Assembly: GCA_045652565.1 (NCBI GenBank)
Contig: JAZRUN010000062.1
Coordinates: 1 to 24,539 of the forward strand
DNA from: Candidatus Enterousia sp.
GTDB lineage: Bacteria; Pseudomonadota; Alphaproteobacteria; Rs-D84
DNA length: 24,539 nucleotides
Direction of reading: 5' to 3'
Below are positions 6,552 to 17,740 of the stretch, piece by piece (positions within the stretch are counted from its first letter, which is position 1; each line of letters begins with the position of its first letter). The notes beneath the pieces were generated by a model. That model saw only the letters and a list, made by a program, of their open reading frames with translations, searched no databases and was not told where the DNA came from. The position numbers and the translations under genes were made by a program.

Positions 6552-6626
6552 GGTCCCATCGTCTAGCGGTTAGGACATCGGATTCTCATTCCGGTAACAT
6601 GGGTTCGATTCCCATTGGGACTGCCA
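6552..6626 (+). tRNA. tRNA-Glu(CTC)
   Basis: Cloverleaf: acceptor GGTCCCA/TGGGACT (G1:U72), anticodon loop TT-CTC-AT, T-loop TTCGATT, encoded CCA. Confidence 0.95.
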
Positions 6627-6637
6627 AAAATCAAGAA

Positions 6638-6659
6638 TCACCCGTTTGGGTGACTTTTT
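6638..6659 (+). terminator. Intrinsic terminator after tRNA-Glu
   Basis: TCACCC-gttt-GGGTGA followed by CTTTTT. Confidence 0.7.
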
Positions 6660-6682
6660 GTTAGATTTCTAAGCATTTCACA

Positions 6683-6734
6683 AGTTCGTAAGTCTGGCAT
6701 TGAAAACAGCCACCGTTTTGCACATTTACGAACT
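6683..6734. repeat. 52-bp palindrome-ended element, copy A1
   Basis: AGTTCGTAA-34 nt-TTACGAACT, preceded by TTCACN. Confidence 0.9.
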
Positions 6735-6743
6735 ATTAAAAAG

Positions 6744-6798: not shown

Positions 6799-7221
6799 TT
6801 ATTTAAACAATATTTCTAGTTCCTTTTGTGTATTTTCATCTATCAGTTTTGCTTGCAAATGTTGATTAGGGTTTGCGGATTCCACTTCTTGCCAGAAACA
6901 TTTGCGGTCATTTAAATTAAATCCCATTTCAATCCAACCTTCTCGCAATCCAATATTTTTGGTGTCTAATATATAAAAATCTAATTTGTAATCAGTATTT
7001 GAATACGTTATGAACGTGTTCTTCACGCTTTCCTTTTTCAATTTTATATCTTTTCCATCAACAGATATTACAGCATAATTTTTATATAATTTTATATCTG
7101 TTGTTGGATTGCCTTCTTCTGCACCATTACAGAAAAAACCAGTCCCAACATACACAGGTTTGTCAGAACAGGCACTTAGACTAATTAAAATTGGCAAAAT
7201 TAACAAAGATAATTTTTTCAT
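6799..7221 (-). CDS. Hypothetical lipoprotein (cargo 1)
   Basis: MKK, hydrophobic core, lipobox LSAC; AAGGAG RBS. Confidence 0.8.
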   Translation of the reverse strand: MKKLSLLILPILISLSACSDKPVYVGTGFFCNGAEEGNPTTDIKLYKNYAVISVDGKDIKLKKESVKNTFITYSNTDYKLDFYILDTKNIGLREGWIEMGFNLNDRKCFWQEVESANPNQHLQAKLIDENTQKELEILFK

Positions 7222-7251
7222 TTTTTACTCCTTAGTTATAGCATCATTATA

Positions 7252-7344
7252 TCATAAATTTTTCAAAAACACTTTAATATCTTTCCCGAACTGCAACAAA
7301 TCTTTGATTTCATCGGTTCGTGAATTGCACAGTATGTCCTGCCA
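7252..7344 (-). repeat. Right-end segment B1 (att-like, ends in CTGCCA)
   Basis: Homologous to 8041-8139. Minus frame from the CCA reads WQDILCNSRTDEIKDLLQFGKDIKVFLKNL*. Confidence 0.85.
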
Positions 7345-7352
7345 AAATAGAT

Positions 7353-7377
7353 AAAACCGCATTTTTGCGGTTTTTTT
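7353..7377 (+). terminator. Terminator-like hairpin at the left end of unit 2
   Basis: AAAACCGCA-tttt-TGCGGTTTT(TTT), positioned like the hairpin after the tRNA. Confidence 0.65.
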
Positions 7378-7400
7378 ATTAGTTTTGCAACACTTTCACG

Positions 7401-7452
7401 AGTTCGTAAGTTGAGTGTCAAAAACCGTCCCCGTTTCGCTGATTTACGAACT
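7401..7452. repeat. 52-bp palindrome-ended element, copy A2
   Basis: Same arms and length as A1. Confidence 0.9.
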
Positions 7453-7455
7453 TTT

Positions 7456-7992
7456 TTATTTGGTTTTTATCAAAAATGTATCCAAATATGGAAACAATTT
7501 CATCCTTTCAGCAGACCAGGCTTTGGTGCTTTGTAAATTTGGAATTGGTTTCAAAGTCATTAAATAATCTATGGTTCGTTTTGTCTCTGCTGAACGCTCT
7601 TTGTACGCAGTTAGACATTTAAAACCAGAGCTGAGAATAAAGAAATATAATGCGGACAGATAATTATAACCATGGTCGTTATCTTTGAAAAACGCAGCCT
7701 GGTCATTTTTTTTATAATAACCGCATGTATCACCAATTCTGATAAGTTTGTTATTAACATCAAATCTTATATAATGATCATCTGTACGCAGTTTATGAAA
7801 AATAGAAAAATGCAAGCTTTTATCGCTTTGGTCGTTCTGTTTATTCTGAGCAAATATAGCTTCTTCATATGAATAATTAACGCGTTTTACCTGCAAAGGA
7901 ATAGTTTTAGTTATTTGAACCATTTTTTGTAATAACAATATGGATAAATCTCTCTGTTCCATTTCTATTGATTTTTCATCAAGGCCTGCCAT
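7456..7992 (-). CDS. Hypothetical protein (cargo 2)
   Basis: AT-rich ORF with no recognised motif. Start at MAGLDE (7992) or 8025; the stop lies 3 nt from A2. Confidence 0.7.
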   Translation of the reverse strand: MAGLDEKSIEMEQRDLSILLLQKMVQITKTIPLQVKRVNYSYEEAIFAQNKQNDQSDKSLHFSIFHKLRTDDHYIRFDVNNKLIRIGDTCGYYKKNDQAAFFKDNDHGYNYLSALYFFILSSGFKCLTAYKERSAETKRTIDYLMTLKPIPNLQSTKAWSAERMKLFPYLDTFLIKTK

Positions 7993-8040
7993 TGTCCATC
8001 TCTTTATTTTATGAGAAATATACAATAAATCTTGATATTG

Positions 8041-8139
8041 TCAATAAAAACAATTGTTCAAAAATAGTTTGATTTCTTTCCCAAACTGCAACAAATCGCA
8101 TATCTTATTAGTTCGTGAATTGCACAGTATGCACTGCCA
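8041..8139 (-). repeat. Right-end segment B2 (att-like, ends in CTGCCA)
   Basis: Minus frame reads WQCILCNSRTNKICDLLQFGKEIKLFLNNCFY*. Confidence 0.85.
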
Positions 8140-8296
8140 TCCGCTTTCGCTTACGCTACAGCGAGATTGAGCATCACGCCGTAGCCAGCGCGTTCGGAGC
8201 AAAAAACTTTATCAATTCCTGATTTTTTATTCATCGAAATTAAGCACCAGCATAGGCGGACCTGTCTCGCCGTAGTTTTACGAAGGCGGATGCCAT
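8139..8296. repeat. REP/MITE-like element with imperfect terminal inverted repeats
   Basis: Left ATCCGCTTTCGCTTACGCTACAGCGAGA matches the reverse complement of right TCTCGCCGTAGTTTTACGAAGGCGGAT. TGCCAT occurs at 8135-8140 and 8291-8296. Confidence 0.7.
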
Positions 8297-8307
8297 ACTT
8301 ATTCACT

Positions 8308-8359
8308 AGTTCGTAAGTTGGTAATTAAAAACAGACCCTATTTTGCTAATTTACGAACT
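8308..8359. repeat. 52-bp palindrome-ended element, copy A3
   Basis: Same arms and length as A1 and A2. Confidence 0.9.
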
Positions 8360-8372
8360 TTTAATATCATTA

Positions 8373-8672
8373 TTAAAATCCCAAAGCATATAAACCAAAC
8401 AAAGAAATGGCAAATAAAGGGAACAATATAATCGAAACCCAAGCGGCTATGTTTTTGTGTGTTGGTGCTATATATCTTGCAATAAAGTAAGCCACAACAG
8501 ACTGTACCAAGAACCAAATAATCAGAAAAGGTGTTTTGAATTTTTCAAAATCACCAATAAAATGGGCTATATATGCAGATAGCACTGAAACAAAATATAC
8601 TGTGAACAATACAGCAGGTACTAATAATATCCAACGCAAAATATTTAGGTTGTCATTTTTTTGTTTTTTCAT
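8373..8672 (-). CDS. Hypothetical membrane protein, about 3 TM (cargo 3)
   Basis: Three hydrophobic stretches; AAGGAG RBS. Confidence 0.78.
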   Translation of the reverse strand: MKKQKNDNLNILRWILLVPAVLFTVYFVSVLSAYIAHFIGDFEKFKTPFLIIWFLVQSVVAYFIARYIAPTHKNIAAWVSIILFPLFAISLFGLYALGF

Positions 8673-8719
8673 TTTTTACTCCTTTTGCAGTTCGTCTAGC
8701 ATTTTTTGGAGCTAAACAA

Positions 8720-9268
8720 TTATCTTTTTGGTTTATAAACTGTGTGGCCCTGGGTCACATAATCTTTTAAAACCTTTTCGCCCGCATCTTGTTCTATTTG
8801 GCCGTAAACGGTTATACCGCGTTTTTTAAATTCGTTGTGCCAGTTTTGCTTAAACCCTTCGTCAAATCCGGTTATTTTGGTGACATGCCTAGAGGGAACG
8901 CCATAATAAACCGCTTTGATACCCGACCACATAATACTGCCCAGACACATCATACACGGTTCAGATGTCACATACATACTCAAATTATATGGCGATAAAT
9001 CATAAGTCCCCAGTTTCTTTTCTGCCATTTTTATCGCATTCATTTCGGCGTGATTATTACTGCAAGATTTATTCACAACATTATTGGCGGCCTTGGCAAC
9101 CAGATTGCCTTTTGAATCATAAATGGCGGCCAAAAACGGGCCATAACCTTTGTTGATATGTTTTTTCAACTCTTGCTGTAAATCCAATATAATTTTATTG
9201 GCCCTAATCAGTTTGCGATTATCAATTTTTTCATTAGCAATCACAGATGTTTTGTTATTTGTTTTCAT
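8720..9268 (-). CDS. Zn-dependent nucleoside/nucleobase deaminase (CDA superfamily, guanine deaminase-like)
   Basis: GPFLAAI, HAE and EPCMMC motifs, then WSGI..VYYG. Confidence 0.9.
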   Translation of the reverse strand: MKTNNKTSVIANEKIDNRKLIRANKIILDLQQELKKHINKGYGPFLAAIYDSKGNLVAKAANNVVNKSCSNNHAEMNAIKMAEKKLGTYDLSPYNLSMYVTSEPCMMCLGSIMWSGIKAVYYGVPSRHVTKITGFDEGFKQNWHNEFKKRGITVYGQIEQDAGEKVLKDYVTQGHTVYKPKR

Positions 9269-9379
9269 ACTGCTACCTTTTTAGAGAATTATGGCATAAT
9301 TTAGACTAAATTGCAAAACAGCTTTTGAAAATCTTTGCCGCCCAACCACAAATCGTGCCACCGACAGGTATGTTTAATA

Positions 9380-9499: not shown

Positions 9500-10090
9500 A
9501 TGAATAAAACACCAGATAATATATTCGACGCTGTGCAAAGTTCACAAGCCCTACGTAAACCCGTTATTGATAACCGCAAGCAAAACATTATTCATAAAAC
9601 AATGGCGGAAGAAGGCGGATATGCAGATAATCCAAAACTGATTGACCAGCCAACAAATTCAGGCATAACACAACCAACACTGGACAAATACAATGCAGAT
9701 CATCCAGACTTTAATTTCCCAGATAAAGTAAAAGATTTATCCCCAGAACAAGCACGGCAAATATACGGCGAAGATTATTATGATGAACGCCGTATTGGCG
9801 ATATAAAAAATGAACGCATTGCAGCGACTGTATTTGATATGGGGGTTATGAGCAATTTCAACAATGTTGGAAAAATTATTCAACAAACATTAAACGATTC
9901 AATAGGCGCAAATTTAAAAATAGACGGCAAAATTGGCGACAAAACAATAGATGCCTTGAACAATATCCCGGACAATAAAATTGATGATTTTATGCAAGAT
10001 TTAAAAGATAACAGAATTAAATATCTGCGCGGCCTGCCCGATTGGAACAAATATGGAAACGGCTGGACAAGTCGTACAAATAGATATTGA
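9500..10090 (+). CDS. Glycoside hydrolase family 108 muramidase with C-terminal peptidoglycan-binding motif
   Basis: EGGY catalytic motif, T-NSGIT, IY..DYY, DGKIG.KT, KYGNGWTSR. Confidence 0.85.
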   Translation: MNKTPDNIFDAVQSSQALRKPVIDNRKQNIIHKTMAEEGGYADNPKLIDQPTNSGITQPTLDKYNADHPDFNFPDKVKDLSPEQARQIYGEDYYDERRIGDIKNERIAATVFDMGVMSNFNNVGKIIQQTLNDSIGANLKIDGKIGDKTIDALNNIPDNKIDDFMQDLKDNRIKYLRGLPDWNKYGNGWTSRTNRY

Positions 10091-16819: not shown

Positions 16820-17740
16820 TCACAACAAAGAAAAATTCTTTTTAATAATGCGCGCACTGGCACGCAGTTCTGCGGATTCTGTCTTTGACATTTTTGGTGT
16901 CAAACTGAACACCACACCAGAGGCGCCGACAACACGTGGCAAAGACATTGCAACCGAATCTTTGGCAACCATGGATACCGTTAAAATTCTGCGTTCATCG
17001 TTTACTATGCAACGCAACAAATCTGCGACAGCGGCACCAATACCGTCCCAAGTTGCGCCACGACCGTGAATAATCTCGTACGCGGCATTACGAACACGAT
17101 ATTCTATTGTGCGTCGCCCAGACACCGAAATCGGCGTTTTTGTTTGACGACAAAATTCATCCAGCGACAAACTGCCAATTGTAATCGCAGACCAATCAAT
17201 AACACTTGCATCACCATGTTCGCCAAGCACATAAGAATGTATAGATTGTGGCGAAACATTCAATGTCCGCGCAAGCATTGTTCGCAAACGCGCAGAATCA
17301 AGCATTGTGCCGGTTCCTATGACGCGCGCGGCTGGCAATCGTGACAATTCGCGCGCAAGCATCACCATAACATCCAATGGATTTGTGACAATAATTAGAA
17401 TCACATGACGCGAATCCACATTTGCCATAACACGCGGAATAATGTCACGAATAACTTCGGCATTATGCTGCAACAAATCTGTACGCGTTTCGCCAACTTT
17501 CTGATTTGCACCCGCCGCAATTATAACAATATCAGACCCACGAATGCCGCGATAATTATTTACCGCATTGATTTTAATATCAAATCCAAAAGTCGCGGCG
17601 TGCCCTAAATCTTCGGCGGCGGCGCGTGCGCGAATCCCATCGCGGTCAAACAAAACTATTTCATGAACCAGACCGGTATTTTTAACCGCGGTTGCAACCG
17701 CAGACCCCACAGAACCAACACCAATAATTGCGACTTTCAT
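16820..17740 (-). CDS. ldh: L-lactate dehydrogenase
   Basis: GVGSVG, GANQKVGETR (Gln specificity residue of LDH), TNPLD, LDSAR, GEHGD. Confidence 0.92.
   Translation of the reverse strand: MKVAIIGVGSVGSAVATAVKNTGLVHEIVLFDRDGIRARAAAEDLGHAATFGFDIKINAVNNYRGIRGSDIVIIAAGANQKVGETRTDLLQHNAEVIRDIIPRVMANVDSRHVILIIVTNPLDVMVMLARELSRLPAARVIGTGTMLDSARLRTMLARTLNVSPQSIHSYVLGEHGDASVIDWSAITIGSLSLDEFCRQTKTPISVSGRRTIEYRVRNAAYEIIHGRGATWDGIGAAVADLLRCIVNDERRILTVSMVAKDSVAMSLPRVVGASGVVFSLTPKMSKTESAELRASARIIKKNFSLL

Follow-up and report, generated by a model that had tools for sequence, protein, structure and literature searches.

A short conserved segment, here called B, closes the right ends of two neighboring small units beside a tRNA-Glu gene of Candidatus Enterousia. 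On the minus strand, it reads as the end of a protein that has no beginning. Is B a piece of a gene, and if so of which one, or is it a DNA element whose open frame is accidental? The stretch of DNA analyzed here in full (the window; 24,539 nt) belongs to a 663-kb, 82% complete MAG of the order Rs-D84 (Alphaproteobacteria), from a gut and rumen genus with genomes of <1 Mb (PMC12306168). A first-pass annotation of the window had proposed that B is the C-terminal piece of a recombinase whose gene contains its own attachment (att) site, so that integration splits off the gene end. We found this split-recombinase reading of B to be only partly supported.

Cassette arrays at tRNA-Glu

The array in the window starts at the tRNA-Glu(CTC) gene and comprises the following features, listed with their positions in the window and their strand.

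6552 to 6626, plus strand: tRNA-Glu(CTC), the anchor of the array (ARAGORN; Rfam tRNA, 61.7 bits; sequence)
6621 to 6626, plus strand: CTGCCA, the final six bases of tRNA-Glu(CTC), common to every intact B end
6638 to 6659, no strand: two-way hairpin terminator at the left end of cassette 1, directly after the tRNA (terminator scan, both strands)
6677 to 6739, plus strand: D1 copy a, 63 nt, with inverted arms AGTTCGTAA ... TTACGAACT (repeat family D1; exact 9-mer matches)
6799 to 7221, minus strand: cargo ORF of cassette 1, a predicted lipoprotein of 140 aa without a Pfam family
7252 to 7344, minus strand: B1, 30 codons and a stop, WQDILCNSRTDEIKDLLQFGKDIKVFLKNL (translation; B profile match)
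7315 to 7323, plus strand: 9-mer GGTTCGTGA within B1, codons 8-10, conserved at the DNA level and shared with the D1 arms
7353 to 7374, no strand: two-way hairpin terminator forming the left end of cassette 2 and, in coding orientation, immediately preceding B1
7395 to 7457, plus strand: D1 copy b (repeat family D1; 9-mer matches)
7456 to 8025, minus strand: cargo ORF of cassette 2, up to 189 aa, without a Pfam family
8044 to 8017, minus strand: cargo promoter of cassette 2, TTGACA-16-TATATT
8041 to 8139, minus strand: B2, 32 codons and a stop, WQCILCNSRTNKICDLLQFGKEIKLFLNNCFY (translation; profile match; 9-mer)
8110 to 8118: 9-mer AGTTCGTGA within B2
8140 to 8296, no strand: ORF-less inverted-repeat insert (MITE-like), which fills the terminator position between the CTGCCA of B2 and D1 copy c
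8302 to 8364, plus strand: D1 copy c (repeat family D1; 9-mer matches)
8373 to 9268, minus strand: cargo of the last unit, with a 99-aa membrane ORF (8373-8672) and a 182-aa cytidine/MafB19-like deaminase (8720-9268)
9314 to 9358, minus strand: degenerate third B at the array end, without CTGCCA, abutting the promoter of a GH108 gene (nhmmer E 0.007 within 3.2 kb)

The stop codon of B1 overlaps the -10 box of a cargo promoter (TGnTATAAT type, 7247-7257). Several parts of this array recur elsewhere: short pieces of the MITE-like insert on other contigs of the source genome, the deaminase as the last cassette of other arrays, and the junction type of the third B at three further loci (L026, L027, and L038). 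The neighbors of the array encode a GNAT acetyltransferase and a D-Ala-D-Ala carboxypeptidase, and a second array of the source genome lies on contig C34.

Approximately 70 arrays share this organization, in which tRNA-Glu (mostly TTC) is followed by 1 to 9 or more units and then by chromosomal flank. Read on the plus strand of the window, a unit of 0.7-1.5 kb consists of a terminator, a D1 copy, a cargo with its own promoter, and a B segment ending in CTGCCA; in related arrays, the terminator layout follows nearly every CTGCCA. D1 is invariant in length in 171 of 185 copies. The cargo is diverse and includes lipoproteins, MafB19-like deaminase, Tlde1, GH108, MFS transporters, peptidases, TyrRS, and DnaJ-MORN proteins, and a Pfam scan of the longer array ORFs and of the window ORFs detected no integrase, integrase remnant, or transfer gene within the units.

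Four observations bear on how the units arrived. In a cassette-free genome (L164), the tRNA is joined straight to the flank that is found elsewhere after the last B (AATCTGATT... junctions), and cassettes common to different genomes end at CTGCCA. Cassette 1 reappears in another MAG in a different array context, with 96% identity over 693 nt, and some B ends include 12-13 nt that belong to the acceptor end of the tRNA itself, GTTGGGGCTGCCA or TTGGGACTGCCA. Together, these features argue for site-specific insertion at the CTGCCA of the tRNA, and we infer that recombination takes place at this motif. Cassette edges are blurred by homologous exchange among B and D1 copies. Past the core, one always finds the terminator and D1 of the next unit, a small insert without an ORF, or the flank that originally adjoined the tRNA. 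Because no remnant of a gene body was ever found beyond the core, the units appear to have lacked an integrase already at insertion and never to have carried the gene body, which speaks against the earlier suggestion that an N-terminal part was lost from each unit.

B is widespread in the genus. A genus-wide search matched it in 156 of 233 Candidatus Enterousia genomes, and two other searches, with B DNA or peptide, in 29 of 36 and 71 of 120 genomes; 105 copies at 42 loci were placed in this same genus. In loci fetched from genomes, nucleotide-profile matches to B numbered 297, of which 229 were distinct and flank-complete. The sister genus yielded a single, broken occurrence, and when 185,579 species genomes were searched, all 80 loci among the matches listed came from Enterousia-type rumen or gut MAGs. 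The likeness among B copies is far beyond chance.

Conservation of B at the codon and DNA levels

The minus-strand peptides described in the first-pass annotation are borne out. Read from the TGG that complements the CCA of CTGCCA (7339-7344 and 8134-8139 for B1 and B2, respectively), the frame in 7252-7392 closes with MRFYLFWQDILCNSRTDEIKDLLQFGKDIKVFLKNL and a stop codon, and the frame in 8041-8205 with SGWQCILCNSRTNKICDLLQFGKEIKLFLNNCFY and a stop codon. The gapless resemblance that it noted likewise holds: the two 88-nt segments (7257-7344 and 8052-8139; family D2) are 82% identical, and they match the B profile with E values of 1.7e-24 and 6.7e-23. Its description of an orphan gene end in frame with the core, located at the attR-like end of each unit, is right in form. 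The statement that neither segment has a start codon is inaccurate for B1, where an in-frame ATG lies six codons upstream (7360-7362), in the loop of the terminator hairpin and without a Shine-Dalgarno (SD) site. Its substance stands, since in-frame ATGs are found in 31 of 159 copies, with an SD-like site at one of those, so that neither start codons nor SD sites are enriched and B has no real start.

The genetic-code fingerprint of B was examined in indel-free copies, first 87 and then 168. Frame 0 is the only one of the six frames that stays largely open, with stops in 14 of 87 copies as compared to 36-86 of 87 in the other five. In both sets, codons 13-24 vary almost solely at third positions, and the number of third-position alleles tracks the degeneracy of the code, with two at TTY, AAR, and TTR and four at GGN and ATN. 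For example, among the 168 copies, codon 19 is TTT in 83 and TTC in 81, and codon 24 is AAA in 96 and AAG in 66; TTG and TTA also alternate among the codon alleles, codon 20 uses GGG, GGA, GGC, and GGT, and codon 13 uses ATG, ATT, ATC, and ATA. Residue classes are kept as well: codon 14 (CGT, CAT, AAA, CAC, CGC, or AAG) encodes a basic residue (R/H/K) in every case, and codons 13 and 23 remain within I/V/M/L. The multiple hits at four-fold sites point to a long evolution under protein selection.

pN/pS is 0.49 in the B frame and 0.72 and 1.30 in the shifted frames. Across 43 independent close pairs, differences are distributed 58:61:129 over codon positions 1, 2, and 3, and 40% of single-base codon differences are synonymous, compared with 19% expected. 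D1, a genuine DNA site of the same units, shows no 3-base periodicity. Judged by this pattern of variation, B is clearly a sequence of protein-coding type that evolved as a protein tail, coding now or formerly.

Analyzing the codons nearest to the core, we further noted a layer of conservation at the DNA level. Codons 5-9 (CTG TGC AAT TCA CGA) are fixed at each codon position, with low entropy, and their region holds AGTTCGTGA, the 9-mer of which both arms of the 63-nt D1 also consist. Exact matches to AGTTCGTRA occur seven times in the 24.5-kb window, all of them in D1 arms or in B2, and the 9-mer of B1 deviates by one mismatch. Codons 26-27 are also conserved at all three positions, the stop codon overlaps a -10 or -35 box, and GAC and GAG are almost absent at two acidic codons. 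With codons 5-9 fixed around the 9-mer and the remainder shaped by the code, B appears to be a composite of a core-side DNA site and a coding-type tail. Other identities that we considered for the two repeats were rejected. B is not a degenerate tRNA-Glu copy, as only GTTCG and CTGCCA are common to both and neither ARAGORN nor Rfam makes a call; D1 does not fit an integron attC or a dif site in motif order and spacing, and its missing periodicity does not fit a second coding fossil.

Signs of present translation were sought in the same copies. The B frame does not differ from another frame in upstream open length or in how often start codons occur, and no promoter was found between terminator and B. 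Indels occur in 61 of 229 copies; the frame is kept in only 19 of these 61, and is thereby broken in 42 of 229. Of the 168 indel-free copies, 14 contain a stop and 92% are open over all 26 codons. Singletons are distributed 11:15:11 among the codon positions and are synonymous in 16% of cases (19% expected), and rare variants in general are even over the codon positions, with 11-20% synonymous. Intact copies make up 76% of the B segments adjoining the tRNA and about 40% of those deeper in arrays. Between cassettes whose cargo is identical, B can still vary at 9-12 positions that cluster toward the core, which indicates that B alleles are shuffled as blocks, independently of the cargo; such differences arise from segment exchange rather than from mutation in place and are uninformative on present selection. 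Taken together, the evidence points away from translation of B in the arrays today. The rare-variant pattern by itself is not decisive, because ongoing purifying selection would also keep deleterious changes rare.

Search for a parent gene and a recombinase

If B is a gene end, a full-length gene that carries it might be found. A profile of 50 B peptides (alignment A1) was run against 1.84 billion protein representatives and matched 76 proteins, the genuine ones being called proteins 34-138 aa in length. Two longer matches were discarded: a 201-aa protein, in which a deletion has joined a partial B with its own cargo, and a 1591-aa protein with a spurious repeat hit. The longest B-bearing proteins (104-138 aa) are not parent genes either, as their N-terminal parts stem from read-through of D1, terminators, MITEs, or antisense tRNA. 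The B peptide has no match in Pfam at E values up to 10 and nothing usable in PHROGs (best E 0.059), the B profile gives nothing usable in the PDB (best E 0.84), and the ESM Atlas returned only unnamed short clusters. Six-frame searches of the genus, with about 300 copies listed, gave open frames of at most 123 aa, bar one of 226 aa (G102) that proved to be a read-through of B into the next cargo ORF without upstream extension. No long ORF ending in B was found in IMG/VR, the upstream extension of B in JGI metagenome contigs reaches 124 codons at most (median 14), and the long ORFs of the source genome include no weak relatives of B.

A recombinase linked to the arrays was equally elusive. The source genome has only two tyrosine recombinases, both Xer-like and encoded on other contigs, and its relatives hold extra integrases of 350-520 aa. 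None of the tyrosine and serine recombinase C-termini fetched from the genus resembles B. The tyrosine-recombinase loci fetched contain no D1 profile match and no AGTTCGTRA, and match B twice at a marginal level (E 0.02-0.04). Serine recombinases are encoded in 102 of 121 genus genomes, including genomes that lack B; none of the serine-recombinase ORFs inspected matches the B profile, and three large-recombinase loci have neither AGTTCGTRA nor the core motif nearby. A small serine recombinase lies beside the tRNA-Glu array in one genome (G104), and another genome (G028) has a large one at a distance of ~8 kb from the tRNA, but no consistent link between arrays and recombinases of either type emerged among the loci examined. 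The genomes, viral contigs, and metagenomes searched yielded no autonomous relative of the cassettes that encodes an integrase of matching specificity.

The proposal that B is the tail of a recombinase is therefore unsupported: no full-length carrier appears among the 1.84 billion representatives or in Pfam, PHROGs, the PDB, and the ESM Atlas, the expected matches at the C-termini of full-length recombinases did not appear, and the recombinase C-termini of the genus are unlike B. The first-pass annotation had reasoned that missing protein matches, together with frameshifts and stops in further copies, would reduce the conservation to DNA-binding sites or promoter sequence. Protein matches are indeed missing and such frameshifts and stops exist, but the conservation comprises more than DNA sites and promoter.

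Origin and present role of B

In form, integrases that contain their own att site appear to be the closest known systems. The intP gene of the Myxococcus phage Mx8 is an integrase gene containing its own attP. In the archaeal SSV-type 'suicidal' integrases, the att site also lies inside the gene, and integration leaves an orphan 3' fragment (PMC8371274). The cassettes resemble both in targeting a tRNA gene at its 3' end and in bearing, at one end of the unit, a 3' gene fragment without its gene. A frame that extends through the att core may be a further resemblance: the B frame begins exactly at TGG CAG, the complement of CTGCCA, and only the downstream side is coding. Unlike in Mx8 and SSV-type elements, only the last 30 codons are present here, the other side of the core is occupied by a terminator and a DNA site, and no N-terminal gene body lies beside the tRNA or the internal cores; moreover, B has no recombinase homology and no full-length version in the databases searched. 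The units are also cassettes of 0.7-1.5 kb, unlike the SSV viruses.

In lifestyle, the closest counterparts seem to be CIME-type accreted elements (ICESt1-type, streptococcal tRNA-Lys islands), which keep att sites, lack integration genes, and accrete in tandem (PMC5704250). The cassettes likewise lack integration genes, stack in tandem at one tRNA or gene 3' end, and are bounded by repeats of the target end, with CTGCCA at the tRNA and at every intact B. CIMEs, however, are decayed remains beside integrase-bearing relatives, whereas here hundreds of uniform single-gene units occur throughout a genus without an autonomous relative, and the repeated fragment is a foreign coding tail rather than the target's own 3' end.

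The arrays also behave like integrons, as mostly single-gene, recombinase-less mobile units accumulate at one fixed site with the newest nearest to it, yet none of the features that define an integron is present. The array has no intI, attI, or Pc beside it, and the insertion point is a tRNA 3' end. In contrast to attC (RYYYAAC ... GTTRRRY), D1 has GTT first and AAC last and mismatches R''/R'. Each unit further brings its own promoter and terminator, and integron cassettes have nothing like B. Finally, the orphan modules of polymorphic toxin loci (CDI, Rhs, MafB) are comparable as tandem start-less fragments that each precede a different small gene, and some cassette cargo is toxin-like (MafB19-type deaminase, Tlde1, GH108). 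In those loci, it is the 5' side of a variable toxin domain that is conserved, downstream of a full-length gene; the cassettes instead conserve a 30-aa C-terminal tail and lack any full-length gene.

The explanation that we favor, tentatively and at slightly less than an even chance, is that B is the fossil end of a gene, retained as the left arm of the site by which the cassettes attach; a fossil is the most likely state of this gene end because no gene with a B tail was found anywhere. According to this model, small integrase-less cassettes would insert successively at the CTGCCA 3' end of tRNA-Glu, with B as their right-end module. The core-side part of B (codons 5-9, AGTTCGTGA) would be a DNA site, a third copy of the D1-arm 9-mer, and codons 10-27 would derive, as a fossil, from the 3' end of a protein-coding gene that formerly extended across the core. 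Circularization of a cassette would bring B, core, terminator, and D1 together as an attP-like region of about 200 bp, in which B may act as an att arm. B would be kept as long as the cassette is mobile or the DNA function is selected and would decay once buried in the array, and its old code-shaped polymorphisms would outlast translation. The parent gene, we infer, belonged to an ancestral element that was autonomous. Several points weigh against a fossil. No parent gene or autonomous element with a B tail turned up anywhere searched, a complete absence that sits ill with a fingerprint implying long protein-level selection. With saturated synonymous sites but only ~1% change at constrained ones, a fossil would require that coding was lost very recently in every lineage or that each position remains under constraint, and the rare-variant pattern is compatible with a living function under purifying selection.

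The parent may also still be living. An autonomous element may carry a gene, perhaps for a recombinase, that spans the att core and ends in B, and the cassettes would be its non-autonomous satellites, receiving fresh B alleles by recombination. Such a source would fit the code fingerprint with its multiple hits at four-fold sites, the start-less frame in register with the core, the better preservation of the copies nearest to the tRNA, and the movement of B alleles independently of cargo, and integrases with an internal att site are known (PMC8371274). We nevertheless consider it unlikely, given that none of several hundred copies examined is joined to more than 124 upstream codons, that neither the 1.84 billion protein representatives nor IMG/VR hold a long genuine match, that the recombinase C-termini of the genus are unrelated to B, and that the tyrosine-recombinase loci lack D1 and AGTTCGTRA and match B in two marginal cases. 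The fingerprint and the 92% of indel-free copies that are stop-free over 26 codons could also reflect translation in place, as a micro-protein of ~26-30 aa made by unconventional initiation or from transcripts that read through the terminator. The candidate initiation codon would be the conserved CTG/TTG codon 5, located 4-5 nt after CAGGG or CAGGA and present as CTG or TTG in 143 of 168 copies, and the predicted peptide, read directly from the sequence, is an amphipathic helix. CTG start codons are very rare in bacteria, and the DNA site explains codons 5-9 equally well; with no promoter between terminator and B, no enrichment of ATG or SD sites, no preference for frame-keeping indels, and decay of copies with array depth, we give translation in place a slim chance.

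At the opposite extreme, B might never have been coding and consist of recombinase or regulator sites and the upstream cargo promoter, with an accidental open frame. The conservation of codons 5-9 and 26-27 at all three positions and the stop overlapping a -10/-35 box would suit this reading, and the near-absence of GAC and GAG at acidic codons hints at an additional DNA-level constraint. However, third-position allele counts follow codon degeneracy, multi-base alternatives hold the residue class (R/H/K at codon 14; I/V/M/L at codons 13 and 23), and D1 lacks 3-base periodicity. A never-coding B is thus close to refuted, and we regard it as extremely improbable. It is distinctly unlikely, if somewhat less so than translation of B in place, that the translation of B is required for cassette movement or retention, be it through a recombinase split between helper and cassette, with B completing, in trans or upon recombination, a gene whose body would lie in an unsampled element, or through unconventional decoding of the start-less frame.

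Despite genomes of <1 Mb, most of the species searched keep an open-ended array of swappable genes at tRNA-Glu. These arrays show no visible recombinase, and B is the most informative part of the system, as it points to a cassette attachment site built on the end of a protein-coding gene and supplies an exact sequence with which to look for the parent element or enzyme. If B is a fossil, as we favor, it would be a recombination site that preserves a genetic-code fingerprint long after translation ended. If B is still decoded, it would represent a rare conserved start-less frame tied to DNA mobility, and if its translation is required, the cassettes would follow a new mobile-element logic, with a coding tail inside the att site of integrase-less units.

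Second array and small elements at the tRNA-Glu end

The genome from which the window derives carries a second cassette array on contig C34 (14766-17400), with four copies of B, the start-less coding-type tail of about 30 codons at the right end of each cassette; one of these copies has a 10-nt deletion. One cargo gene of this array is a paralogue of the lipoprotein gene in the window, and the signal peptide MKKLSLLILPI is common to both.

The tRNA-Glu end is also used by small integrating elements of a second type, since ORF-less elements of 150-250 nt, found in genus loci L162, L165 and L166 and in the same genome on contig C34 (~17400-17700), follow the tRNA gene and terminate in a copy of its last 12-18 nt, both in genomes that have B cassettes and in genomes that lack them.

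In a further locus (L163, G013:C3), from a genome without B, a site resembling D1, the 63-nt site with inverted 9-mer arms present once per unit, lies ~100 nt after tRNA-Glu and has different arms (AGTTCGAAAGTAG ... CTACTTTCGAACT). It may represent another specificity class within this cassette system.

Inserts, fusions and remnants within the arrays

Several sites in the arrays depart from the usual arrangement, in which the terminator and D1 follow the CTGCCA that ends B:

Window 8140-8296: ~157-nt insert that lacks ORFs and has inverted repeats CCATCCGC...GCGGATGG at its ends
L025:~2616-2690, also L033, L039, L054, L060 and L066: ~70-nt element CTATGAGTAGCAGAGCG...GCCGAGCGAAAC at array junctions
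L053:~785-830, L064:~1951-1990, L067:~3372 and ~4217: fusions of terminator and D1 halves
Window 8686-8705: short remnant GCAGTTCGTCTAGCA, resembling the AGTTCGTGAATTGCA part of B

The window insert immediately follows the CTGCCA of B2, where it takes the place of the usual terminator, and short pieces of it are found again on further contigs of the same genome. The ~70-nt element, which is distinct from this insert, directly abuts CTGCCA before the terminator and D1, and was counted in at least six arrays, all from other species.

The fusions link the terminator's left half straight to the D1 right half (..GACCACC|GTTTCACACATTTACGAAC). The D1 centre (AAAAC..CCACCGTTTT) is similar to a terminator half, and deletions arise between the two. 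In the window, the B-like remnant separates the deaminase gene from the 99-aa membrane ORF, which suggests that these genes were formerly two separate cassettes.

Neighbouring recombinases and toxin-like cargo

Just past the array-anchoring tRNA-Glu of genome G104, we noted a gene for a 189-aa serine recombinase (L257:4910-5479; G104:C126), and in G028 a 529-aa serine recombinase (G028:C7:125669-126121) is located ~8 kb from the tRNA. This proximity may be due to chance, because serine recombinases are present in 102 of the 121 genus genomes.

Cargo and flank genes include those for MafB19-like deaminase, GH108 muramidase-type and Tlde1-domain proteins (window 8720-9268 (-) and 9500-10090 (+); L026:10210-11406). 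The array region may therefore contain genes that encode toxins or effectors, along with their immunity partners.
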